IMG/VR virus record: IMGVR_UViG_3300027672_000077
Coordinates: 1 to 26,110 of that record
Length of the DNA stretch: 26,110 bases
From: a virus
Taxonomy: Duplodnaviria > Caudoviricetes
Strand: one strand, 5' to 3'
Shown here: piece by piece, positions 2,760-25,471 of the stretch
Layout of the letters: each line of letters begins with the position of its first letter
Position numbering within the stretch: the stretch's first letter is position 1
Position numbers and translations under genes: made by a program
Notes under the pieces: generated by a model
What the model saw: the letters and a program-made list of their open reading frames with translations, nothing else
Told to the model about the DNA's origin: nothing
The model's database searches: none

Positions 2760-5700
2760 ATGGCAAATATTCAAAGAAATTTTACAAGAGGACGTATGAA
2801 CAAAAGCCTTGATGAAAGGCTTGTGCCTCAAGGTGAATATATTGATGCGTTAAATGTTAGGTTAGGTTCAACGGAAGCTTCTGAATATGGCTCAGTTGAA
2901 AATTCAAAAGGAAACACTCTCCTTACTACTTTAATGTTTGATAATATACCTTTGAGTAATAATGCTAGATGTATTGGAGCTTATGAAGACGGTACAAATG
3001 AAACTTTATATTGGTTTGTACATGACCCTGCATTTACTGTTGGAAACACTAGTAAAATAGATTTAATTGTATCTTATAATACTACGACAAATTCTACAAT
3101 ATATCATGTTGTTAGTATTAACGATGGAAATAACTTAAATACTACATTAAATTTTAGTCCTTATTATTTAATAACAGGAGTTAATTTAGTAGATAATTTA
3201 TTGTTTTTTACAGATTATTATAATCCTCCTAGATTTATAAATGTAAATTCTTCATACGCAACTCCTTTAAATTATTTAGACCAGTTTACAGCTGAAGCTT
3301 TATTAGTAATAAAAAGACCTCCAATTGAGTCTCCAAGCATTCAAATGTTAACAGTATCTGGTAATGAAGAAAATTTTTTAGAAGAAAGATTTATTTCATT
3401 TGCTTATAGATATAGATATTCTGACGGAGAATACTCGGCAACTTCTCAATTTAGTGATGCTGCTTTTGACCCCGGACAATTTAGTTTTAGTCAGAACAGT
3501 TTTTTAAATGAAGGAATGTTAAATTCCAAAAACGCTGTAATTATTACTTTTAACTCAGGAAGTTCATTAGTAAAAGGTATTGATTTATTGTTTAAAGAAT
3601 CAACTAATTCTACAATAAAAATTATAGAAAAATTAGATAAAAGTAATTTAGGATATTCAAACAACACTAATTATACTTTTTCTTTTGACAATAGTAAAAT
3701 ATTTACGCTATTGCCTGAATCTGAAATATTAAGACTTTTTGATAATGTTCCTAACATTGCCAAAGCTCAAACTATTATGGGCAATAGATTGGTATATGGT
3801 AACTATAAAGATGGATATGATTTAAAAGACAAATTTGGAGAAGATTTAAAATTAGAATTCTTAACAACTCTTTCTAGTAAGGAAATTGGAAATAGTACTC
3901 TTATAGATTCTACATCTCCAGGATATTATACCATTGGTCCTACGGCAAAAACAATTGATAACTCTATTGTTTATTTTGATTTATCTAAAGAAGACGGTAG
4001 CACTGTTGATTTAATTGCAGGAGCGGAAATAACTTTAGATTTTCGTTTAAATCATAGCGCTTTTACCGGATACACTCCCTCTCCTACAGAAGAAACATCA
4101 AGTGTAAATATAGTTTTTATTTATACACTTCCATCTTCTTTTAGTAATGTGTATTCTTTAGCTACTAGTACTGATTTTATAGAAAAAGTAGGTACAGCTA
4201 CAAATATACAACCTATATCAACATCTTGTGATGGAGCTACTTTAACCGACCAGGTTAATTGTGCTCTTCCTCAAAATTTAAATACATTTACAAAAACAGC
4301 TAGTGGTATATCCGCTAATGCTCAACCATTAGCAATTGTATCTACTCCAGGTAGTAACACTATTGGTATACAGATAATTGCAATGCAATATTTAGATGGA
4401 GCTAATAGTATTTACGAGTTTTATGAGGTTATTTCTTCAGCCGCTACTTTTCAAGAACTAGGCAATTCACAAAGTTTGCATAGTAATAGAGGGTATGAAA
4501 TTGGAATTGTATACATGGATAACTTTAATCGTTCATCTACAGCTCTTGTAAGCCCGCAAAATACCATACAAGTACCTTGCTCTAACTCAATAGATAAAAA
4601 TAGCATAGAGGTTACTATACCCTTCCAGCAGTTTGCACCAAAATGGGCTAGTAGATATAAGTTTGTTTTAAAACCTAATCAAGATATATATGAAACAATA
4701 TATTCTAATATTTTGTTTCTTGACCCAAATAGCAACGCTGCTTATTTTTTATTAGAAGGAGATAATGCAAGTAAGATTGAAGATGGAGATAGACTTATAG
4801 TAAAAAGAGATTCGGACGGACCTGCTTCTAATTGTCCTATTGCGACTGTTTTAGAAAGAAAAACACAGTTATCTAATTTTATAACTATTCCAACAGGAAA
4901 TAATGATTCAGATGGGAATCCTATAAACATAGAAATTCCTTCTGGAGTTTATATGAAAATAAATCCTAGTAATTTTAATGTTGTATATGAAGAAAATAAT
5001 GTAGTTAATCTTGCTTATAATTCTGTATTAGCAGAAAAAAAACGAACTTTCCCTATATTAGCTTATAGTTTAAGTATTGAGGGAACTACTACCGGTCAAC
5101 CAACTTGGACTCATATAAATTACGATATACCTCAAGGAAGTAGAATTAACTTTACCATAAATCAATCTAGAGATAAAGACACAAAAAACTGGCCTAGAAG
5201 ACAATATGAGTTAGAATTAAAATTATCGGCTTCAAAAGATTATACAACTATTCAAGAGTGGTTTGTTGGAGATAATGTAGGAGAGCTATTAAATGATGGT
5301 AGTCAAATAGTTACTAGAGGAGATTCTCCTATATTAAATCAATTTGAATCTACTTATTTAGAGCAAGCGGGAGCTCCTGACACCTCATCCCCAAGTTCAA
5401 GTATCCCTACTTCAGAATATACTAACTATTATAAATTCTACAGAAATACTACAACTAACGAATTATTCCTTTTAATTACAGGAACTGAATCTGCTGGAAG
5501 AACTAGAAATAGAAGGTCAAAAGTAAGTGCTAAATTTGATATTGTAAGAACTAATGACGGTTTTGTTTTTGAAACAGAACCTCAAGATGCTTCTCCAGAT
5601 ATTTGGTATGAAAATTATTTATCCTTACCAATAAATTCTGACGGACAACATCAAGGTAATGTTCAAAATCAAACTGCTTCTCAATCAGCTATTATAGATA

Positions 5701-7622
5701 CAAAATTTTTCAATTGTTATTCTTTTGGAAATGGTGTTGAAAGTTATAAAATTTTAGATTCTATAAACGGTAAAACAGTTAACATTGGGGAGCGAGTTAC
5801 TTCTACGTCTAATGTAACTTTTAAAGAAGCTAATAGGTTTGCTGATTTAACTTATAGCGGAGTTTATAACGATGAAACAAACGTAAATAAACTGAACGAG
5901 TTTAATCTTGGATTAGCTAATTTTAAACCATTAGAAGATTCATTTGGTCCTATACAAATATTATTTGCTAGAAAAACTGATATATTAACCCTACAAGAAG
6001 ATAAAATTTCTTACGTTTTAACTGGGAAAAATTTAATAAGCGATTCAACTGGAGGTGGAGTTATAGCTTCAATTCCTGAAGTATTAGGACAGCAAATTGC
6101 AAGAACAGAAAAATATGGTATAAGTAATAATCCGGAAAGTTTTGTTTCTTGGGGAGCTAATAAATATTTTACAGATTCTAAAAGAGGAGCGGTTATAAAC
6201 CTAATAGGAAGTAACACTCAACAAGAACAACTTCAAGTAATTTCTGAAACAGGAATGCGAGGTTGGTTTAGAGATTTATTTATAGAGTCAAACAACACAT
6301 ATAAACTTGGAGGATTTGACCCTTATATGAATGAATATGTATTGCATTCAAATATTCAACTACCACCAGTAAGTAAAGATTGTTTAAAATGTGATGTTTC
6401 AAAAAACATAATACTTTCTCCAGGGGAAAGTTTTAGTTATTGTGTAGATTTAACTAATTTGTTAGGATTAGTTGACATAGATTACATTATTCCTTTTCAA
6501 GGATTTGATGATATTGTTACTGAATTAAATTCAACTACAATCACAGAGTTATCTGAACAAAATATTGTGGCTGAAGAAGTCCTTACTGGAACTGGGTACA
6601 CTATTACTGCTGTATATAACGGAGGAACACACACTACGGGATTAGTTTTTGAAAGTGGAACATTAACTTTTAATAAAAACGATGTTAATGTTACTGATGT
6701 AACTTTAACTATTTCTCATGATAGTCTTACAACTGACACAATTGAAATCAATGTGGGATGTCCTCAGTCAGTAGACATGACGGTATTTAATATAGCAATT
6801 ACCAGTAACTCTGATGCTGGTAAATTTATAACAAATGATTATAGATGGACAGATGGGTCGTTTTTCTCTCCAGCTCACGTTACTGCAATTCAGTTTTCTA
6901 ATAGTACAATTAACCCTATTGTTTCTGAATATAGTCAAGTTGCAGGTCCTCAAGGAGCTGGTATTATACCAGGTGATGGAGCGATAGTATCTTTAATTAG
7001 CAGAAAACAAGGATTTGATAATTTTGTTTTTAATCTAACTTTAAACAAGTTTAAATACTTAAGAAGTAATATTATTTATAATAATAATGCTACAGATATA
7101 AATGCTCTTTTAGCGGCATCTACAGATATAACCCCTATATATACTGAAGTTAATCCAGCTCAATATTCGGCTGCATTTACAATGCCTGCTGGAGGTCAGT
7201 TTTTATATTTAATCTGGGATTATAGAGAACCAACATCGTCTAATCTATGTTACTCTACATTAGGTGCACAAGATGCTTGTACGGGATGCACTCCCATTCC
7301 CAGTCCTACGCCTACACCATCTCCTACACCTGTAACAACTTACAGATGGCTTATTGAATCTGGAAGCGGAACTACGACAAGTCCATCTACCTGTCCTTTT
7401 GTGGGAACAGACCTTTATAGTACTTCCAGTTCTTTCAATACAGTATTTGTTAATAACACAATTTTTTACACAGACGCTGCAAGAACTCAAATATTTCAAG
7501 GAAATAATAATTATTTTGGAATAAGACAACCTAGTCAGGGATACGGTCAAGCTCAAGGTATATTTAGAATGACAAGTTTAGGTACAACCTCAAATATAGA
7601 CACAGCAGGAGTCTGCAATTAA
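2760..7622 (+). CDS. Tail stabilization/muzzle protein (P22 gp10-like beta-propeller), N-terminal part, with C-terminal extension carrying a PT/PS linker and a Cys-flanked module
   Basis: 1620 aa. Start NFxxGRMNKxLDERLVPxGEYIDALNVR, then LLFFTDxxNPPRxIN, FAYRYRYxDGEYSA, GNRLVYGNY, YGISNNPESF..YFTDxKRGAV and GGFDPYMNEYVL, typical of crAss-like stabilization proteins. Confidence 0.75.
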   Translation: MANIQRNFTRGRMNKSLDERLVPQGEYIDALNVRLGSTEASEYGSVENSKGNTLLTTLMFDNIPLSNNARCIGAYEDGTNETLYWFVHDPAFTVGNTSKIDLIVSYNTTTNSTIYHVVSINDGNNLNTTLNFSPYYLITGVNLVDNLLFFTDYYNPPRFINVNSSYATPLNYLDQFTAEALLVIKRPPIESPSIQMLTVSGNEENFLEERFISFAYRYRYSDGEYSATSQFSDAAFDPGQFSFSQNSFLNEGMLNSKNAVIITFNSGSSLVKGIDLLFKESTNSTIKIIEKLDKSNLGYSNNTNYTFSFDNSKIFTLLPESEILRLFDNVPNIAKAQTIMGNRLVYGNYKDGYDLKDKFGEDLKLEFLTTLSSKEIGNSTLIDSTSPGYYTIGPTAKTIDNSIVYFDLSKEDGSTVDLIAGAEITLDFRLNHSAFTGYTPSPTEETSSVNIVFIYTLPSSFSNVYSLATSTDFIEKVGTATNIQPISTSCDGATLTDQVNCALPQNLNTFTKTASGISANAQPLAIVSTPGSNTIGIQIIAMQYLDGANSIYEFYEVISSAATFQELGNSQSLHSNRGYEIGIVYMDNFNRSSTALVSPQNTIQVPCSNSIDKNSIEVTIPFQQFAPKWASRYKFVLKPNQDIYETIYSNILFLDPNSNAAYFLLEGDNASKIEDGDRLIVKRDSDGPASNCPIATVLERKTQLSNFITIPTGNNDSDGNPINIEIPSGVYMKINPSNFNVVYEENNVVNLAYNSVLAEKKRTFPILAYSLSIEGTTTGQPTWTHINYDIPQGSRINFTINQSRDKDTKNWPRRQYELELKLSASKDYTTIQEWFVGDNVGELLNDGSQIVTRGDSPILNQFESTYLEQAGAPDTSSPSSSIPTSEYTNYYKFYRNTTTNELFLLITGTESAGRTRNRRSKVSAKFDIVRTNDGFVFETEPQDASPDIWYENYLSLPINSDGQHQGNVQNQTASQSAIIDTKFFNCYSFGNGVESYKILDSINGKTVNIGERVTSTSNVTFKEANRFADLTYSGVYNDETNVNKLNEFNLGLANFKPLEDSFGPIQILFARKTDILTLQEDKISYVLTGKNLISDSTGGGVIASIPEVLGQQIARTEKYGISNNPESFVSWGANKYFTDSKRGAVINLIGSNTQQEQLQVISETGMRGWFRDLFIESNNTYKLGGFDPYMNEYVLHSNIQLPPVSKDCLKCDVSKNIILSPGESFSYCVDLTNLLGLVDIDYIIPFQGFDDIVTELNSTTITELSEQNIVAEEVLTGTGYTITAVYNGGTHTTGLVFESGTLTFNKNDVNVTDVTLTISHDSLTTDTIEINVGCPQSVDMTVFNIAITSNSDAGKFITNDYRWTDGSFFSPAHVTAIQFSNSTINPIVSEYSQVAGPQGAGIIPGDGAIVSLISRKQGFDNFVFNLTLNKFKYLRSNIIYNNNATDINALLAASTDITPIYTEVNPAQYSAAFTMPAGGQFLYLIWDYREPTSSNLCYSTLGAQDACTGCTPIPSPTPTPSPTPVTTYRWLIESGSGTTTSPSTCPFVGTDLYSTSSSFNTVFVNNTIFYTDAARTQIFQGNNNYFGIRQPSQGYGQAQGIFRMTSLGTTSNIDTAGVCN
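7293..7338 (+). repeat. Pro-Thr/Pro-Ser linker repeat (PIPSPTPTPSPTPVT)
   Basis: Alternating-Pro tract using the same cct/aca/agt codon units as the repeats in the next gene. Confidence 0.85.
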
Positions 7623-7632
7623 AATAAATTAA

Positions 7633-8793
7633 ATGGCTACAAACGGAACATATTATTTTGATACTGCAAGTTTTGACAACGCAACAACTCTTTATACAGA
7701 TGTTGCTTTGACTTTAATTGCAAATAACGGATGGTATTCTAACGACTCCATTGTAAGACAACAAGTTTCAGGAGTTTTATTTGCAGCACAATCTTGTGGC
7801 GCTCCCATTCCTACACCTGTAACGCCTACACCATCTCCTGTAACACCTACACCTGTAACGCCTACACCTAGTCCTACGCCTGTAACACCTACACCTAGTC
7901 CTACGCCTGTAACACCTACACCTAGTCCTACACCCGTAACGCCTACACCTAGTCCTACGCCTGTAACGCCTACACCTAGTCCTACACCTAGTCCTAGTCC
8001 TAGCCCTGGTCCGACTCCAACCTATACTACTCTTTTATATAGAGATGATGGTTCTGGTAGTGGATGGCAAAATTCAAGTACAGCCTGTTCTAATTCAGGA
8101 AGCATTGCTGTTGTAAACGCTTCTTATGGCTCTACTTTTTCCGTAGGCACTTATTTATTTACCAATACAGCCTTAACCATTCCTTTTAACGGAAATAACA
8201 GATGGTTTTTAGATGAGCCCAGAAACAATGCTTTATTTATAGATGCTAGTGGTCAAATTACTTTAGCAGCTTCTTGTTCAACGCCTAGTCCTACGCCTGT
8301 AACGCCTACACCTAGTCCTACGCCCATTGTTTATGCTTATACTTTAAGACAGTGTACTACTCTGCAACTTTATGATGTAACATTACCTCAATCAACACAG
8401 CTAGGAACTTCTGTAAGTTACGCTGCACAATGTTGGGAGGTATATGCAGTGGCTTCATCTGGAGGGGCAATAAGCCCTCAAAGTTATCATAACAACTGTA
8501 CGGATTGTTTAAATCCTCCAACTCCTAGTCCTAGTCCTACACCTAGTCCTAGTCCTACACCTAGTCCTACACCATCAGGTAGTTGCTATCAAATATATTT
8601 ACAGAGAGGTTTTCAACTTTGCTCTGGTAGTTTTGCAACTTATAGTTTTAACGCAACAACTTTAAGTTCAGCAACAGCCGTTTATTCTGATAGTAGCTGT
8701 ACTACACTTATGAGTGGAACATATTATTTTACACAAAATAATCAATGGAAATTATGGACAGGTTCTCAGTTTGTACAAAGCGGCTCTTGTTAA
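7633..8793 (+). CDS. Pro/Thr/Ser-repeat structural (tail appendage-like) protein with four Cys-containing modules
   Basis: 386 aa. Three (X-Pro)n tracts separate four small aromatic, beta-rich modules bounded by cysteines. Lies within the tail operon. Confidence 0.7.
   Translation: MATNGTYYFDTASFDNATTLYTDVALTLIANNGWYSNDSIVRQQVSGVLFAAQSCGAPIPTPVTPTPSPVTPTPVTPTPSPTPVTPTPSPTPVTPTPSPTPVTPTPSPTPVTPTPSPTPSPSPSPGPTPTYTTLLYRDDGSGSGWQNSSTACSNSGSIAVVNASYGSTFSVGTYLFTNTALTIPFNGNNRWFLDEPRNNALFIDASGQITLAASCSTPSPTPVTPTPSPTPIVYAYTLRQCTTLQLYDVTLPQSTQLGTSVSYAAQCWEVYAVASSGGAISPQSYHNNCTDCLNPPTPSPSPTPSPSPTPSPTPSGSCYQIYLQRGFQLCSGSFATYSFNATTLSSATAVYSDSSCTTLMSGTYYFTQNNQWKLWTGSQFVQSGSC
7804..8022 (+). repeat. Tandem 27-bp coding repeat (PVTPTPSPT)n
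   Basis: Unit cctgtaac(a/g)cctacacctagtcctac(g/a) repeated about five times, with degenerate flanking copies. Confidence 0.9.
8281..8325 (+). repeat. Further copy of the PT/PS linker (TPSPTPVTPTPSPTP)
   Basis: Near-identical at DNA level to the 7804-8022 units. Confidence 0.85.
8515..8577 (+). repeat. (PS/PT)n linker
   Basis: cctagt/cctaca hexamer array encoding PPTPSPSPTPSPSPTPSPTPS. Confidence 0.85.
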
Positions 8794-8831
8794 GTAATAA
8801 ATAATTATTACTTTTATGTAAATTAAATTAA

Positions 8832-10001
8832 ATGACTGAAATAAAAAATTTCTTAAGTAAGGAGGAATGCTTAAGTTTTATTAAAATGATAGACGAAAAC
8901 AATACTCCATCATCTGTAGTAGAGGGGGGTGACGATATAAGTACTATTTCAAAAACACGAACATCCAGTACTTCTAATTTAAATCATTCTATTCCTCAAG
9001 TTAAAAAATTTCATCAAAAAATAGCTGATTACTTAGGTATAGATATTTTAAAAGGAGAGCATCTACAGGGACAGCTATATGAAGAGGGTCAATACTTTAA
9101 ACCTCATCAAGATTTTTTTAGTGGTCCAGCTTATGATAAACATTGTTTATCTAGCGGCAACAGGACTAATACATTTATGATTTATCTTAATGCTGATTTT
9201 GAAGGAGGTGGAACTAATTTTGTAAATTTAAACACAGTGGTATCTCCGGAAACAGGCAAAGGGCTTACTTGGAAAAACATGGAAAAAGATGTTTGTTTAG
9301 AAGAAGCTATGCATGAGGGGATGCCAATTTTAAAAGGTAAAAAATATATAATTACTTCTTGGTGGAGAGAGAACATTTGGAATGGAGGAGAAGATACCAC
9401 GCTATATTTAAATAAACCCAAAAAATATACAGATAAATCTCAAATACCTAAGCTAACAGAAAAAGGATTTAAGGTTGTAAAAGTTCCTCCAGAAACCATG
9501 GGTATTATAAATGATGCATATAAATTACTTCAAAGCACAATTAAAGAAGAAGTTTTTGAGGGTAAAGAAAATATTATAATAGGAGGAGGAAGCGAGTTTT
9601 TAAATTTTGATGAAATACCTTCTATAAAAAATCTAATTCATAATCACTTATTTCCCGTACATAGAGAGTTTGCTGGAGTCGATATTGTCCCTAGTTTTGT
9701 TTATGGAATTAGGTCTTATTTAAGGGGAGCTACTCTAGTAAATCACGTTGATAGGGTAGAAACTCATCATGTATCTTCTATAATAGTAGTAGATAAAGAC
9801 TTAAGATGCGGATGTCAAAATAAAGAATTTGGAGATGATTGGGCATTAGAAATTCAAGACCATGAAGGGGGTTGGCATAAAGTTTATGCAGAACCAGGTG
9901 ACATGATTCTTTATGAGTCTGCTATTTGTGAGCATGGAAGAGCGACTCCTTTCCAGGGTAATTTTTATAGAAATTTTTATGTTCATTATAAAATTATATA
10001 A
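8832..10001 (+). CDS. Tandem 2OG-Fe(II) dioxygenase; N-terminal domain is prolyl 4-hydroxylase-like
   Basis: Domain 1: NFLSKEEC, RTSS, YxxGQYFKPHQD (HxD), RxxTFMIYLN, EGGGTNF, HEGMPILKGKKYIITSW (distal His and 2OG-binding Lys of P4Hs). Domain 2: YGIRSY..L.NHVD, WALEI.DH.G, PGDMILYES..CEHGR. Confidence 0.85.
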   Translation: MTEIKNFLSKEECLSFIKMIDENNTPSSVVEGGDDISTISKTRTSSTSNLNHSIPQVKKFHQKIADYLGIDILKGEHLQGQLYEEGQYFKPHQDFFSGPAYDKHCLSSGNRTNTFMIYLNADFEGGGTNFVNLNTVVSPETGKGLTWKNMEKDVCLEEAMHEGMPILKGKKYIITSWWRENIWNGGEDTTLYLNKPKKYTDKSQIPKLTEKGFKVVKVPPETMGIINDAYKLLQSTIKEEVFEGKENIIIGGGSEFLNFDEIPSIKNLIHNHLFPVHREFAGVDIVPSFVYGIRSYLRGATLVNHVDRVETHHVSSIIVVDKDLRCGCQNKEFGDDWALEIQDHEGGWHKVYAEPGDMILYESAICEHGRATPFQGNFYRNFYVHYKII

Positions 10002-10909
10002 TGATAGATTTTATACAAATAGACCCTAATGGATTATGTAATGCTGGATGCTGGTTTTGTCCTGTATCTTTAATTGGTAATCCTAAAGAACATATAGGTC
10101 AAATGTCGCCTGAGCTTTATGAAGATATAATAAGACAGATAAGTGAGCTAAAGGGAGACTTAGTAAACCCAAATCTTCATTTTGTATATGCTTCACATTA
10201 TAATGAGGTTTTGTTATATAGGCATTTTGAGGAAATGCTAAAAACTTTAAAAAAATACAATTTAACTTTATGTGTATTGACAAATGGCGTGCCTCTTACT
10301 GCTAAAAAAATAGACCTTATAAATAAATACCCTGGGGTTGTTTCTCAAATAGCAATTAATGCTCCAATATACGAGAAAAGACTTTTTGCCAAAAGAACAG
10401 GAATGAGAGAGTCTATGTTTGACTCTTTAATGTTTAACATAAAATATGCAGAAAAAAACCTGTATAACCCTAAAATATTATTACTTCAAATTAACGGCAT
10501 AAATGAAAACTCTAACATTATTAAAAAACAAAATTTTCCAGACTTAGAGCCTAATGAATTTCAAAATCAAATTAATCTAGCAAAATCAATTTTTCCTAAT
10601 GTAAGCATTACAGAGCAATGGAACTTAATAGACAGAGCTGGACTAATGGATGATGTAATGGAAAGTAAAATTTCTAAAGGAAAAGTTATTGGATGCAGTT
10701 CAAAAAGAGACACCAACTGGCTTCATGTAAGTCCTAAAGGTCATGTCTTTTTATGTTGCAACGATTACCATATGGATTATACTTTTGGAGATTTAAATAC
10801 TGATAAATTAAAAGATATATGGATGAGCGACAAACGTAAAAAAGTTTTAAAAACTGCTTTTCAAAATATATGCACTTCTTGTTCTTCTGCAATATTTGAA
10901 AATGGATGA
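10001..10909 (+). CDS. Radical SAM protein with SPASM/twitch domain
   Basis: CNAGCWFC (CxxxCxxC), LTNG, and C-terminal C...G.V.LCCND....GDL....L.DIW...CTSC. TAATG overlap with the upstream gene. Confidence 0.9.
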   Translation: MIDFIQIDPNGLCNAGCWFCPVSLIGNPKEHIGQMSPELYEDIIRQISELKGDLVNPNLHFVYASHYNEVLLYRHFEEMLKTLKKYNLTLCVLTNGVPLTAKKIDLINKYPGVVSQIAINAPIYEKRLFAKRTGMRESMFDSLMFNIKYAEKNLYNPKILLLQINGINENSNIIKKQNFPDLEPNEFQNQINLAKSIFPNVSITEQWNLIDRAGLMDDVMESKISKGKVIGCSSKRDTNWLHVSPKGHVFLCCNDYHMDYTFGDLNTDKLKDIWMSDKRKKVLKTAFQNICTSCSSAIFENG

Positions 10910-11771
10910 TAAAATACTTGTAAGTATTGCATCTTATAAAGATTCGGATGTAATCAATACTATTATTGATTTGTATGATAAGGCAGAGCGGCCAGATAGA
11001 GTTTATGTAGGTTTGTTTTTGCAAGACACGGACCAAGAGATATTAAGAATACTTGATTTTTTTTCTAATTTTTTGTTTAAAAAAAACTTAAAAATTAAAA
11101 CTATACCTTTTAAAGACGCTAAAGGTTGCGGGTGGGCTAGGAACGTAATACTAAGGGAGCTGTATGGTCACGAAGATTACTTTATGTGTGTAGATTCTCA
11201 CTCTAGGTTTTTAAAAAAATGGGATTTAATTTATATTGACACCTATAAAAAAGCTCCAGAAAATGCTGTTATTAGCGCTTTTCCACAATCTTTTGATTTT
11301 GTAGAAACGTATGAGCAATATACCAGAAGAAACTTAGCAACCATTTATACCCCCAATGCTTTACCTTGGACAAATGATTTTAATCATCCGCACTGCCAAA
11401 AAACACCTACGGAAAAATACGAAAAAGTAATGTCTATATCTGGCGGTAATATTTTTGGAGACTCAAGATTAGCAAAAGCAATTACTTTAGATGATTATAG
11501 TTTTGTTCACAATAAAGAACAGGAGATATATTCGCTTCTTATATACCTATATGGTTTAGACATATACGCTATACCTCAAAACGTAGTATGGCATAAATAT
11601 ACTGTAGAAGAATCTTACAGGGATTTATTTAATCCCAAACAAATAAAATATAATACAGATTTTATTAGCTCATTAAAAACAAAAGAAACTAACAGAACAA
11701 TAAAAAGCTGGGTTGATTTGATTCAAAAGGATTGCGATGAGTGTAAAAAGACAAAGCAATTAAATTTGTAA
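10902..11771 (+). CDS. Glycosyltransferase, Gnt1/GT60-like (Skp1-hydroxyproline / polypeptide GlcNAc-transferase family)
   Basis: ILVSIASYKD, LYDKAERPDRVYVG, AKGCGWAR, LYGHEDYFMCVDSHSRFxKKWD (DSH motif), ISAFP, EQEIYS, VVWHKY. Overlaps the radical SAM stop. ATG 10902 preferred over TTG 10896. Confidence 0.8.
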   Translation: MDDKILVSIASYKDSDVINTIIDLYDKAERPDRVYVGLFLQDTDQEILRILDFFSNFLFKKNLKIKTIPFKDAKGCGWARNVILRELYGHEDYFMCVDSHSRFLKKWDLIYIDTYKKAPENAVISAFPQSFDFVETYEQYTRRNLATIYTPNALPWTNDFNHPHCQKTPTEKYEKVMSISGGNIFGDSRLAKAITLDDYSFVHNKEQEIYSLLIYLYGLDIYAIPQNVVWHKYTVEESYRDLFNPKQIKYNTDFISSLKTKETNRTIKSWVDLIQKDCDECKKTKQLNL

Positions 11772-11778
11772 ATTTGTA
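11761..11778 (+). promoter_or_regulatory. Tandem TAnnTTTG elements (TAAATTTG twice) upstream of the 608-aa gene
   Basis: TAAATTTG at 11761-11768 and 11769-11776, 18 nt before ATG 11795. Confidence 0.5.
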
Positions 11779-11794
11779 GTTAAATATACACCCT

Positions 11795-13621
11795 ATGGCT
11801 TTTTATGAATTAAGAAAATGTACAGATGATACTCCATTTTTTCAGTATGTAACTTTTCCTCAAAACGTACAGCTTAATTCGGTTGTTTTATTGTACGGAG
11901 AATGTTATACGGTTTATGCTTTTAGGAATACCGGCACTTCCGTTAGCCCTACTGCATATTACGATAATTGTCCTCAATGTGTTCCAGCTCCGCCAACACC
12001 TCCTTCTCCAGTACCAGTAACTTCATATGAATGGAAGTTTAATCAAGCTCAGGGAAACGGCTCTTCAACTAAACCTTTTTTATGTGTATATTCTCCACAA
12101 ACAGTTTGGTCAAACGTACAAACAGTTAATGACATAGTTTGCGGAACTCAACACTTTTGGCAAGACCAAAACTTAACAACTGTTTTTATAGGTTCTAATC
12201 AATATTATAATGCAATTCCAGGTAGCACTCCTGCTACTGGAACAGCAACATTTTTAATTGAAAACACAGGTACGGTTACTTATAAGTATGACTGTCAAGG
12301 AAATAATATATGTGGAGGCGGTCCAACTCCATCACCTAGTCCTACTCCTAGTCCTAGTCCTACTCCTAGTCCTAGTCCTACACCTAGTCCTACACCCACT
12401 CCTTTACCCACTGCTCCCCAGTATTGTTTTAGCTCCACAAATGCAGTAACTTTCCAGGTTATAGGACTTATTAATGTTTATGTTTTTGGTGGAAATTATG
12501 GTATATATGGAACTGGTAATGGAATATTTGTTTTAAACGATATTCCCTCAACACATCCAATTGCTTTTCAAAATTTTAATAAAACCAGCTTAATAAGTTA
12601 TAGTGGAACTTACAGTGGAGGAACTAAAACAGGATTAGATGGAAATACATATGAGTATTTTTACGGAGATGTAACGGTCACAGTAAGCGGAGATTACGGA
12701 ACGTTAAGTTATGAATGTTTCAATCATGGATACATGGGTGGACAGAATAATTTAAGATACGACAACATCACTTGTCCTTCTATTGCTCCTCCTATTATTC
12801 CTCCTATAGGAGACCCCTCTAAGCTATATACTTTAACTTATAGCGACACTGTAAAGGGATGGCCTTCTTTTTATTCTTATTACCCTGATTATATGATTGG
12901 AATGAATAATTATTTTTATTCATTTAATAAAGGAGAGCTGTATAGACATAATACTAACTCAACAAGAAACAATTATTACAACGTACAATATAACTCTGAG
13001 GTAAAGAGTGTGTTTAACGAAATGCCTTTAGAAAATAAAATATTTAAAACCATTAGCTTGCAGTCAGATTCTTCTTGGTCAGTCGAACTAGATAGTGATA
13101 TTCAAACTGGAGCAACAATTGATAGTACATGGTTTGAAAAGAAAGAAGGCGCATGGTTTGCTTATGTTAGAGACAACGGAACAAACCCAGCTCAGGCTAC
13201 AGAATATCCTTTACGCTCAGTAAATGGAGTAGGTAGAAGCAGTTCGGTAAGTGTAGTTGGTACAAGTACTATTGTAAACTTCTCTACTAGTCCTCTTATT
13301 TCGATTGGCAACGATATAAGCGTAGGTGATGTTTTATATTATGCACTTCCTCCTTATAATACAATTGAAATGGCTGGGAGAGTTTCCGCTATTAATATAG
13401 AACTACAAAACAATGTTAATAGTATTGTAATTGATAATACATTTGTCGGTTCAAACACTCCTATTCCAATACAGGACGCTTATTTTATGTATATAAAAAA
13501 TCAACAAGCTGAATCTAATGGTACATTGGGACATTACTGTTTATTTACAATAACAAATACAGACACTACGGCTACCGAACTGTTTGCAGTAGAGTCAGAA
13601 GTAATGAAAAGCTATCCGTAA
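11795..13621 (+). CDS. Tail protein: Cys modules, PT/PS linkers and a cupredoxin-like domain fused to the C-terminal part of the stabilization/muzzle protein
   Basis: 608 aa. From ~12821, TLTYSDxVKGWPSFYSYYPDYMIGMNNYFYSFxxG, FNExPLENKIFKTI, FEKKEGxWFAY and ELFAVESE resemble the C-terminus of crAss-like stabilization proteins. Confidence 0.7.
   Translation: MAFYELRKCTDDTPFFQYVTFPQNVQLNSVVLLYGECYTVYAFRNTGTSVSPTAYYDNCPQCVPAPPTPPSPVPVTSYEWKFNQAQGNGSSTKPFLCVYSPQTVWSNVQTVNDIVCGTQHFWQDQNLTTVFIGSNQYYNAIPGSTPATGTATFLIENTGTVTYKYDCQGNNICGGGPTPSPSPTPSPSPTPSPSPTPSPTPTPLPTAPQYCFSSTNAVTFQVIGLINVYVFGGNYGIYGTGNGIFVLNDIPSTHPIAFQNFNKTSLISYSGTYSGGTKTGLDGNTYEYFYGDVTVTVSGDYGTLSYECFNHGYMGGQNNLRYDNITCPSIAPPIIPPIGDPSKLYTLTYSDTVKGWPSFYSYYPDYMIGMNNYFYSFNKGELYRHNTNSTRNNYYNVQYNSEVKSVFNEMPLENKIFKTISLQSDSSWSVELDSDIQTGATIDSTWFEKKEGAWFAYVRDNGTNPAQATEYPLRSVNGVGRSSSVSVVGTSTIVNFSTSPLISIGNDISVGDVLYYALPPYNTIEMAGRVSAINIELQNNVNSIVIDNTFVGSNTPIPIQDAYFMYIKNQQAESNGTLGHYCLFTITNTDTTATELFAVESEVMKSYP
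12323..12418 (+). repeat. (PS/PT)n linker
   Basis: cctagt/cctact hexamer array encoding PTPSPSPTPSPSPTPSPSPTPSPTPTPLPTAP. Confidence 0.9.
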
Positions 13622-13642: not shown

Positions 13643-14161
13643 ATGAGTGTAGAAGCTTCTCCTATCGAGATAATAAGTAACATTACTTCCTATAGAGGTT
13701 TAATGTGGGATAAGATTGCAGAGTTTTCTAAAAAACTAGAACAGGTCTCAGGTGTTTTAAAGCACAAAGCTGGAGATGTTCAGTCTAAAGAAATGAAAGA
13801 TTTTTTTCCTTTGAAGCAACACATAGAAGGTGGCTTATATACTCGTGAAATGTTTTTGACTAAAGGGTCTTTTGTAGTAAGTATGATTCATAAACAAAAC
13901 CATCCATCTTTTTTACTTCGAGGCAAGGTCTCTTATTTGGGAGATGATGGGTCGGTTAATACTATCGTAGCGCCTAAGACCATATTTACCAAGGCAGGAG
14001 CTCAAAGAGTTCTTTATATACACGAGGACACTCAATGGTGTTGCGTATATAAAACAAAAGAAAAAACATTCGAACAAGCAGAGGCTGATGTTTATACTAA
14101 TGACTATAAAGATTTACCAAAAAAAATTATTAATAAAATAAAAAAATTATGTCTGGATTAG
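13643..14161 (+). CDS. Cupin-like phage protein
   Basis: PLKQHIEGGLYTREMFLxKGxxVVSxIHKxxHPSFLLxG...APxxxxTKAGxQR resembles a common phage cupin-fold family found before ejection genes. Confidence 0.55.
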   Translation: MSVEASPIEIISNITSYRGLMWDKIAEFSKKLEQVSGVLKHKAGDVQSKEMKDFFPLKQHIEGGLYTREMFLTKGSFVVSMIHKQNHPSFLLRGKVSYLGDDGSVNTIVAPKTIFTKAGAQRVLYIHEDTQWCCVYKTKEKTFEQAEADVYTNDYKDLPKKIINKIKKLCLD

Positions 14162-24388: not shown

Positions 24389-24758
24389 ACTTAAAAAGTT
24401 TTTTATTATCAAAAGAAAGCAACAGCTCTCCCTCTTCTGACCATTTAGTTTTACCTATTAATCCTTCAATGGGTAAATAATAGATGCCATCTATACATGA
24501 CCATATCATAACTGCGTTTAGTCTTTTGTCTCGTAATTTTATAATTTTACGAGCTTCTACAGTTAAAGGGTAAGAATCTTTCATCTCTGTCTCCAGGACT
24601 TTTACTTCTGCATATCCTATTACACCTCCGTTATCTCCTGTTATTCTAAAGTCGACATCATCCGGGCTTAACTTTTTATAGCTACCTCCGAGCCTTCTTA
24701 GATATAACTCTACGGCTTTTTTTTCTTTTTTTATATCTTGGTTTTTTTCAAATATCAT
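24375..24758 (-). CDS. PD-(D/E)xK nuclease-like protein (127 aa)
   Basis: True start probably MIFEKNQD at 24758 (ATGA overlap with the phosphoesterase stop). Motif E....VDF......GYAEVK and W.C.DGIYY. Confidence 0.55.
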   Translation of the reverse strand: MIFEKNQDIKKEKKAVELYLRRLGGSYKKLSPDDVDFRITGDNGGVIGYAEVKVLETEMKDSYPLTVEARKIIKLRDKRLNAVMIWSCIDGIYYLPIEGLIGKTKWSEEGELLLSFDNKKLFKYVRP

Positions 24759-25471
24759 AATTCCATTAAACAATTTATCGCAGTATGTCCGCCTAGTATT
24801 ACCCCGCAGCCAATTGCTTGCTTTTTGAAGTTCTTTGCGTATGCTGTTGCGTACGAGCTTCCGTCCACGCCGCAGCCCACCTGCATTCCGAAGACCTTGA
24901 AATTTCTTCCAACCGACCACATTGTGTAACATTGAGTATGGATATGTCCTTGAACAGTACTCATCATATCATTCTTCGATTTTGTGCTAGCTGTGCCGCC
25001 TTCCCCGTGGACATATTGAACATTGTCATAAACAACACGCTCAGTCCAGTTCCAATTAGTCCCCAGTACTTCATTGTATGATTTAATCCAAGCACTAGGA
25101 ATGTCTGATGTTTGTGCCTTACGCATCACCATTCTATCGTGATTTCCAATCAGTACATCTGCCACAGGGAATGCATCACTCCAACTTTTAACGGCTCTAA
25201 TCGCATATTCAAGCTCATCTAAACCGCCCATCGCATCACTAGATGTCTCATGATAGCTCGTATAATGGTTGTCTATTATATCTCCTATGTATATTACTTG
25301 ATTGCATAAGTATTTAGAGTAAGTCTCTTGGCAAAACTCCAAGTATCCTTCCAGTTCAAACGGGGCGTGGATGTCTCCAATTACAAGAATACGCCTCTCA
25401 TCCGTGTTTAGATTGTCGTAGGCTATTTTCTTATCGCCTTTAAGTCTGGGTCTAAAATCTTTAAATCTCAT
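24755..25471 (-). CDS. Calcineurin-like metallophosphoesterase
   Basis: All five motifs present: GDIHAP, GDIID, GNHD, YVHG, GHIH. Confidence 0.9.
   Translation of the reverse strand: MRFKDFRPRLKGDKKIAYDNLNTDERRILVIGDIHAPFELEGYLEFCQETYSKYLCNQVIYIGDIIDNHYTSYHETSSDAMGGLDELEYAIRAVKSWSDAFPVADVLIGNHDRMVMRKAQTSDIPSAWIKSYNEVLGTNWNWTERVVYDNVQYVHGEGGTASTKSKNDMMSTVQGHIHTQCYTMWSVGRNFKVFGMQVGCGVDGSSYATAYAKNFKKQAIGCGVILGGHTAINCLMEL

Follow-up and report, generated by a model that had tools for sequence, protein, structure and literature searches.

Candidate hydroxylation and glycosylation of proline-rich phage tail linkers by a swappable gene cassette

The DNA analyzed here is IMG/VR record IMGVR_UViG_3300027672_000077, positions 1 to 26,110 (the whole stretch is called the window), which represents the late-gene region of a short-tailed phage of marine source whose kin are phages of Flavobacteriia. 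Between the two halves of its tail muzzle lie genes for a prolyl 4-hydroxylase (P4H)-like oxygenase, a radical S-adenosylmethionine (rSAM) enzyme and a GT60-family glycosyltransferase. We consider it quite likely that these three genes form a swappable cassette that acts in the host cytoplasm on the proline-rich linkers of tail-tip proteins of the phage itself. The cassette and the proline-rich tail linkers are gained and lost jointly in relatives, which suggests that the phage likely hydroxylates and glycosylates its own tail. The direct observations are the gene families, their catalytic residues, the position between the muzzle halves, the co-presence of the tracts and the covariation of linkers with glycosyltransferases.

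The cassette and the flanking muzzle and proline-rich genes all lie on the + strand. Four genes separate the muzzle halves (2760..7622 and 11795..13621), in the order 386-residue Pro-rich protein (7633..8793), 389-residue oxygenase (8832-10001), rSAM enzyme (10001..10909) and GT60 (10902..11771). The oxygenase stop and the rSAM start share 1 nt. The overlap between the rSAM stop and the GT60 ATG (10902), at which the homologue alignments also begin, is 8 nt, and spacers of 38 nt and 23 nt separate the cassette from the flanking genes. Order and overlaps agree with the coupled cassette inside the tail operon described in the initial annotation. Its further claim, that tract-bearing genes flank the cassette on both sides, holds for three genes, two upstream and one downstream, but the Pro/Thr/Ser linker in the extension of the upstream muzzle half (7293..7337) has only 15 residues and a Pro density reached by 63 of 1000 shuffles, which on its own is within chance.

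The other two proteins had Pro densities above all 1000 shuffles. In the 386-residue protein, three Pro-Thr/Pro-Ser linkers connect small domains that contain Cys. The three are a 73-residue (PVTPTPSPT)-type tract (7804..8022), which is a candidate substrate whose Pro density was reached in 0/1000 shuffles of the protein, and shorter linkers of 16 residues (Pro/Thr/Ser; 8284..8331) and 22 residues (Pro-Ser/Pro-Thr; 8515..8580). The extension of the downstream muzzle half carries a 13-residue Pro-rich linker (11984..12022) and a 32-residue (PSPSPT)-type tract (12323..12418), also a candidate substrate. No further + strand gene of at least 150 residues in the window has a Pro count above 9 per 30 residues.

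Joint occurrence of cassette and tracts

As an anchor independent of both traits, we used the muzzle C-domain, for which 80 of 142 and 80 of 576 relatives gave 155 loci in all. After 18 loci without an upstream muzzle gene were dropped and identical rows were merged, 108 distinct loci were left. Cassette and tract were both present in 32 of these and both absent in 76, with no discordant locus. The 32 cassette loci comprise 29 with the oxygenase and three with GT60 and no oxygenase. They had 12-21 Pro per 30 residues and the 76 cassette-less loci at most 10; the cut at 11 was set after this gap was seen. Homologues of the 386-residue protein in cassette-less relatives have no tracts. On the muzzle tree there was one well-supported contrast, or two on the best tree, and the 108-locus table therefore does not amount to 108 independent tests.

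The comparison was replicated in two unrelated long-tailed, tape-measure-type backbones, groups A and B, in one of which a major tail protein and a tape measure gene were shown. Because the anchors here came from cassette-bearing loci (two such loci were added to group A), the neighbours are the informative rows; a tract was scored as repeat runs totalling at least 11 residues. Group A contained 82 loci, of which 20 were incomplete and dropped, leaving 53 distinct loci (4 with both, 49 with neither); group B contained 15, of which 3 were dropped, leaving 11 (3 with both, 8 with neither). Each group gave two well-supported contrasts, all concordant. Summed over the three backbones, there were five well-supported contrasts (1+2+2), none opposed (two-sided p 0.06), and seven on the best trees (p 0.016). 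The co-occurrence check recommended in the initial annotation was thus concordant in all three backbones. In group B, one orthologous linker, flanked by the same domains throughout, reads (PT)n only where an oxygenase gene follows; it was ordinary in both of the cassette-less kin compared. Two carriers of this group have only the second oxygenase domain (C-domain, below) and no glycosyltransferase, which suggests that the C-domain also acts on the linker.

When the enzymes were taken as the starting point, 258 loci were grouped into 99 clusters. At least 40 tract residues lay upstream in 81 of the 85 oxygenase clusters having at least 1 kb of upstream sequence, and of the four exceptions one had a short flank, two had short tracts and one had its tract downstream. 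The tracts of locus L009 are of a PPT type that a simple (Px)n pattern missed. The residue before Pro was Ala, Ser, Thr, Val or Pro for 90% of 6243 tract prolines vs 37% of 8662 others, which matches the (A/S/T/V)-Pro(1-4) glycomodule of plant and algal hydroxyproline-rich glycoproteins (HRGPs) as given in the available part of PMC11252719.

Glycosyltransferase slot and linker make-up

In 87 fully seen clusters, the slot behind the oxygenase held an HPAT-like enzyme (35), GT32 (16), GT60 with rSAM (12), an O-FucT-like enzyme (7), GT60 with O-FucT (7), GT60 with GT32 (5), GT60 with HPAT (1) or no recognized glycosyltransferase (4). For the HPAT-like enzymes, PF23452 was above cut-off in 3/6 tested and in 38/104 homologues; presumably this family may cover the Ser-specific SGT1 type too. 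Linker make-up was scored only in the tracts upstream of the oxygenase gene, so that this gene lies between them and the glycosyltransferase. The mean Thr+Ser of these tracts was 0.39 with GT60, 0.26 with HPAT or GT32 and 0.14 with O-FucT, and the mean Pro-Pro was 0.33 with GT32 and 0.01 with GT60. Phylogenetic generalized least squares (PGLS) over 75 loci, with Brownian motion on the oxygenase tree, gave effects of +0.118 Thr/Ser for GT60 (p 1e-6), +0.148 Pro-Pro for GT32 only (p 1.3e-4) and +0.094 Val/Ala/Ile for HPAT only (p 1.2e-4); for O-FucT the p value was 0.024. Three GT32 loci without Pro-Pro enrichment and four GT60 loci below the Thr/Ser cut were off this pattern. In the nearest sisters of the window, whose oxygenase is 94% identical, HPAT stands in place of rSAM-GT60; the domains of their 386-residue protein are near-identical and only the linkers are rewritten, from PTPS to PVAP and PP types.

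Runs of Pro with Val, Ala or Ile that are free of Ser/Thr and at least nine residues long occurred in 0/22 GT60, 16/31 HPAT, 5/6 O-FucT and 1/14 GT32 loci. In such runs hydroxyproline (Hyp) alone could carry an O-glycan, and the case for Hyp-linked glycosylation is stronger in relatives with HPAT-like or O-FucT-like enzymes. The GT60 loci are Thr/Ser-rich and none has such a run, so the GT60 of the window more likely acts on Thr/Ser than on Hyp. The covariation, together with the analogy to protist Golgi GT60s, which initiate mucin-type O-glycans according to the available parts of PMC8724618 and PMC3188802, leads us to lean modestly towards Thr/Ser as the acceptor.

The initial annotation had pointed to the protist Skp1 enzyme pair; in a strict relay of this type, the P4H would make Hyp and GT60 would put N-acetylglucosamine (GlcNAc) on Hyp only. 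Gnt1 is itself a GT60 enzyme. In the clade to which the GT60 of the window belongs, a 2OG (2-oxoglutarate oxygenase) gene precedes 17/17 members and has the P4H domain in 16/17, and a protist Skp1 Hyp GlcNAc-transferase exists (PMC8724618, available part). Such a relay is not favored by the Thr/Ser-rich GT60 loci devoid of Ser/Thr-free runs, by the mucin-type activity of the protist Golgi enzymes, or by three loci (L056, L162 and L072) in which longer GT60s, though of a separate clade, accompany Thr-rich tracts with no 2OG gene. We regard the relay, which is a variant contained within our confidence in the cassette as a linker-modifying system, as rather doubtful. The earlier proposal that the phage modifies its own linkers is therefore retained on the strength of co-occurrence and covariation, but GlcNAc on hydroxyproline is not favored in the window.

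Several related loci differ in content. In L236 (3910-7630) a tail protein with (Pro-Gln)n linkers, a different linker type, is followed by the oxygenase and GT32. The cassette is accompanied by sulfotransferase-like and kinase genes in L265 (10791-13962), by a carbamoyltransferase gene in L019 (9324-10760), and by DegT aminotransferase and GNAT genes in L047 (7624-9263), which suggests further decoration of the glycan. In other phage types (L206, 6082-9425; L209, 6942-8813), a Pro-rich gene, which in L209 has a long (PSPV)n tract, is followed by an HPAT-like gene with a P4H-like gene nearby. The cultured cyanophage S-SCSM1 (MK867354.2) contains a (Pro-Arg)n-type repeat at 28679-28752 and is a possible test system.

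Enzymes of the cassette and surrounding genes

Both families named in the initial annotation were recovered in the family search: the oxygenase gene matched 2OG-FeII_Oxy_3 above the cut-off (E 1.4e-14), and the GT60 gene matched PF11397 (E 3.1e-35; 122.7 bits vs a cut-off of 21). The oxygenase is P4H-like in its N-terminal domain (N-domain), as had been claimed, but contains two 2OG/Fe(II) domains and not one. The PDB sequence matches of the N-domain (8832..9398) are exclusively P4Hs (best E 2e-18). Folds were compared using a predicted model of the whole protein (mean pLDDT 89.4), of which the C-domain was compared as a part. In this model the N-domain (residues 1-187) is closest to the Chlamydomonas P4H, Cr-P4H (Z 22.6, rmsd 1.7, 167 residues aligned), followed by bacterial, human collagen and chlorovirus P4Hs (Z 20.5, 20.3 and 20.1). 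The top five matches are P4Hs (Z 22.6-18.6) and ranks 1-9 are all prolyl hydroxylases, with Dictyostelium PhyA at rank 8 (Z 15.2).

Over the 93 clusters that carry the N-domain, H92 and D94 of the iron triad are kept in 91/93 (two gaps), and H161 of the triad and K171, which we take to be the 2OG-binding Lys, in 93/93. The peptide-positioning residues of P4H are Glu127, Arg161 and Trp243 (PMC5684110, available part), and their equivalents E76, R111 and W177 are kept in 90/93, 91/93 and 93/93. From the predicted fold and these residues, we infer that the N-domain 4-hydroxylates linker prolines. The C-domain (9417..10001; phrog_2954, E 5e-15) has its own conserved HxD...H triad, H305-D307-H368, and its homologue is a stand-alone gene in 6/99 clusters. 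PDB sequence and profile searches, Pfam and Atlas gave it no family name beyond generic 2OG. No relatives of the oxygenase were found in a GTDB scan, and among cultured phages 0/12 matches to the whole oxygenase reached 80% coverage.

The rSAM enzyme (Radical_SAM and SPASM) has twitch/SPASM-type C-terminal cysteines and is a candidate sugar-tailoring enzyme. The CxxxCxxC residues C13, C17 and C20 and the auxiliary C232, C252, C253, C291 and C294 are invariant (7/7). Its best PDB match is BtrN (E 1.7e-10), a radical SAM dehydrogenase whose substrate is an aminocyclitol in antibiotic synthesis; the core motif and twitch region are common to both, but the match is limited to two short stretches. 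The rSAM gene is restricted to one GT60 clade and is present with 17/17 members. The 289-residue GT60 belongs to a family of polypeptide N-acetylhexosamine (HexNAc) transferases, and its D98-S99-H100 and H231 are invariant in 15/15 aligned sequences; we take DxH and the distal His to be the family motif. Nucleotide-sugar (NDP-sugar) epimerase or dehydratase genes occur in 0/12 GT60-rSAM clusters vs 9/35 HPAT clusters, and their absence fits the use of host UDP-GlcNAc. Neither the rSAM enzyme nor the HPAT-like protein had a match among the cultured phages searched. In L023 (81-3009), which comes from a different phage, the oxygenase, rSAM and GT60 genes stand in the same order and are immediately followed by head-like genes; the contig begins at the oxygenase and leaves no upstream sequence in which to look for a tract.

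The initial annotation had called all three flanking genes structural, and this applies to the outer two, which are the halves of a crAss-type muzzle (PF25731 and PF25729). The N-terminal half (1620 residues, extended at its C-terminus by small domains containing Cys) matches PF25731 crAss_MUZ over residues 5-355 (30.6 bits vs a cut-off of 27) and phrog_14478, a virion structural protein (E 1e-225). The C-terminal half has an N-terminal extension of ~340 residues that bears the Pro-rich linkers; it matches PF25729 (E 1.5e-18) and is 36% identical to a structural protein of Cellulophaga phage phi13:2, in which a 1613-residue structural gene is directly followed by the homologue of this half. 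The muzzle C-domain matched 87 phage records, of which 68 are named Flavobacterium and 15 Cellulophaga, and on this basis a Bacteroidota host is probable. The middle, 386-residue protein had no Pfam or PHROG match, a single NCBIfam match, below cut-off, and matches to its small domain limited to unnamed viral clusters; its presumed structural role follows from its position, and it is probably a tail appendage. Neither muzzle half nor the GT60 had a significant match in PDB sequence searches. Cassette-less relatives also have the two-gene muzzle, and the gap between its halves is the insertion site of the cassette. In L009, L010, L013 and L014 the N-terminal half is split into two open reading frames, and the short first one also has a Pro-rich tract.

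Elsewhere in the window, a 172-residue gene (13643-14161) has PHROG matches labelled tail fibre and alternates with a gene of ~136 residues in relatives, and a calcineurin-like metallophosphoesterase gene (24755-25471, - strand) opens an opposite-strand block. A scan for promoters and terminators found 24 sigma-70-like sites vs 26.5 expected and 0 terminators, which carries no information when the host probably belongs to the Bacteroidota. Parts of the cassette genes are covered by contigs from four metatranscriptome runs; these contigs show neither strand, level nor a shared transcript, and were not counted as evidence.

Weighing of alternatives and the proposed modification

Several points weigh against modification of the tail linkers by the cassette. 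The independent contrasts are few (5-7 over three backbones). For linker make-up, binary independent-pair sign tests fell short of significance (median p 0.06-0.25); for GT60 there were nine pairs, on average 5.0 with, 0.3 against and 3.7 unchanged. Linker thresholds and classes were picked after the data were seen, and PGLS used the oxygenase tree. Small linker-flanking domains are common to different backbones, so modules move as blocks, and transfer of whole modules could mimic part of the signal. In Cr-P4H, Tyr140 touches the (Ser-Pro)5 substrate (PMC9676403, available part), and this position is Phe (Phe89) in 91/91 ungapped sequences. The C-domain is a double-stranded beta-helix, the generic 2OG fold, with its best Z of 14.5 to HalB and no preference for P4Hs. 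The P4H of chlorovirus PBCV-1 (vCPH) is virus-encoded, has the same fold (Z 20.1) and acts on Pro-containing peptides in vitro, yet Hyp is reported, citing unpublished work, as undetected in virions (PMC7019647, available part); that virus infects eukaryotes, and the same text reports no coupled Hyp/Thr transferase. In S-SCSM1 the C-domain homologue lies beside O-FucT and carbamoyltransferase genes, away from tail genes. A P4H-like gene is present in Erwinia phage Y3 and in Mel-JY01, neither of which matched the tract pattern. In the Xanthomonas jumbo phages XacN1 and Xoo-sp13 (L378, 7001-10718; L379, 6992-10687), a long GT60 and a carbamoyltransferase lie near DNA polymerase and RNase H genes.

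The block movement of modules also favors a second explanation, in which the cassette is an auxiliary block that targets host surface glycans or host proteins and the tracts are plain linkers hitchhiking in a variable tail module. This has been published for similar genes of S-SCSM1, assigned by the authors to host metabolism and the cell wall (PMC9602691), and of S-SCSM2R (PMC12801897; both in the available parts). A short Pro/Thr/Ser tract does occur in S-SCSM1, at the C-terminus of the virion protein ORF217 (172919-172986; loci L376 and L371 cover the S-SCSM1 tracts), ~68 kb from the enzyme genes. We consider a host target unlikely, as it does not predict that a tract appears at an orthologous linker only alongside the oxygenase, that linkers between near-identical domains are rewritten when the glycosyltransferase changes, or that the covariation survives tree correction.

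It is highly unlikely that the linkers are only hydroxylated and the glycosyltransferases use another acceptor; four of the 87 fully seen clusters do keep tracts with an oxygenase and no recognized glycosyltransferase (L248 and L316; short in L029 and L034), but linker make-up varies with the glycosyltransferase family. Hypermodification of phage DNA by base oxidation and then glycosylation, for which one might cite the known glucosylation of DNA by phage glycosyltransferases (PMC12619734, available part), the GT60s of XacN1 and Xoo-sp13 near DNA polymerase and the substrate class of the C-domain, left open by the fold comparison, is the least credible alternative, because the N-domain scores Z 18.6-22.6 to P4Hs vs 11.4 to NgTET1 and 11.1-14.1 to the AlkB family among nucleic-acid oxygenases, keeps peptide-binding residues, sits in a tail operon and tracks protein tracts.

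We therefore return to the cassette as a modifier of the phage's own linkers, which would act during late expression in the host cytoplasm. The N-domain would 4-hydroxylate linker prolines, the second 2OG domain may also act on the linker, and GT60 would add HexNAc, probably GlcNAc from the host pool; the rSAM enzyme might then oxidize or epimerize the sugar. In relatives with an HPAT-like or O-FucT-like enzyme, the sugar would go onto Hyp itself. The result would be extended stalks that bear glycans and show small domains around the tail tip. Glycosylated Hyp stabilizes polyproline-II helices in extensins (PMC11252719, available part), which makes stiff tail-tip stalks plausible; that such stalks shield against proteases or alter adsorption is speculation.

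The nearest known systems each share part of this arrangement. The plant and algal HRGP pathway (P4H, then HPAT/GT95 or galactosyltransferases, under the Hyp contiguity hypothesis) likewise has a P4H of the Cr-P4H fold, (A/S/T/V)-Pro repeat substrates, an HPAT-family enzyme, found here in the phage relatives, and a sugar type tied to Pro spacing. In contrast, the phage version is encoded in a phage genome, is presumably cytoplasmic and has enzymes and substrates in one operon; Pro-Pro goes with GT32 and not HPAT, and the window has GT60 and rSAM, with HPAT (PF23452) filling the slot only in relatives. The protist GT60 systems, which comprise Skp1 Hyp-GlcNAc and the Golgi mucin-type polypeptide alpha-GlcNAc transferases, share a PF11397 enzyme beside a prolyl hydroxylase and Thr-rich repeat targets. 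Unlike the Skp1 system, the phage substrate would be a repeat linker, none of 15 window proteins has a Skp1 Pfam match, and the hydroxylase resembles Cr-P4H and collagen P4H (Z 20-23) more than PhyA. Mycobacteriophage virion glycosylation (Che8; PMC12619734 and PMC11256854) involves phage glycosyltransferases and glycans on virion proteins, as proposed here; its targets are capsid and tail-tube C-termini, and the available parts of these sources describe no prolyl hydroxylase or Pro-rich linkers. The initial annotation knew of no phage example, and a literature search that excluded subscription papers likewise found no account of tail linkers being modified by a P4H-glycosyltransferase cassette of a phage; the words 'phage' and 'hydroxyproline' do not occur in a review of viral O-glycosylation (PMC11139210).

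Overall, the arrangement is real and non-random, and it is probably a self-modifying tail system, similar in its working to the plant Hyp-glycoprotein and protist mucin pathways and a member of neither. A broader proposal, on which our judgement is evenly balanced, is that aquatic phages apply to their own tails a plant-like hydroxyproline-glycoprotein system, in which each swappable glycosyltransferase (GT60, HPAT-like, GT32 or O-FucT-like) co-evolves with its own Pro-repeat dialect while radical-SAM, carbamoyl, sulfo and amino-sugar genes vary the glycan. If this is true, the tail-tip stalks would bear a hypervariable sugar coat. If the plant-like reading holds, these would be, to our knowledge, the first Hyp-linked glycans made in bacterial cells. 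The pairing of linkers and enzymes makes sharp predictions that are testable on short synthetic peptides. Many phage 2OG oxygenases and glycosyltransferases are at present classed with host metabolism or the cell wall, and for some of them the proposal names a specific substrate. The system would supply compact soluble enzymes for Hyp- or Thr-linked glycopeptides. Phage virion glycosylation, known from the capsids and tail tubes of mycobacteriophages, would come to include tail-tip appendages as well, and a plant- and protist-type modification would be placed in the bacterial cytoplasm.

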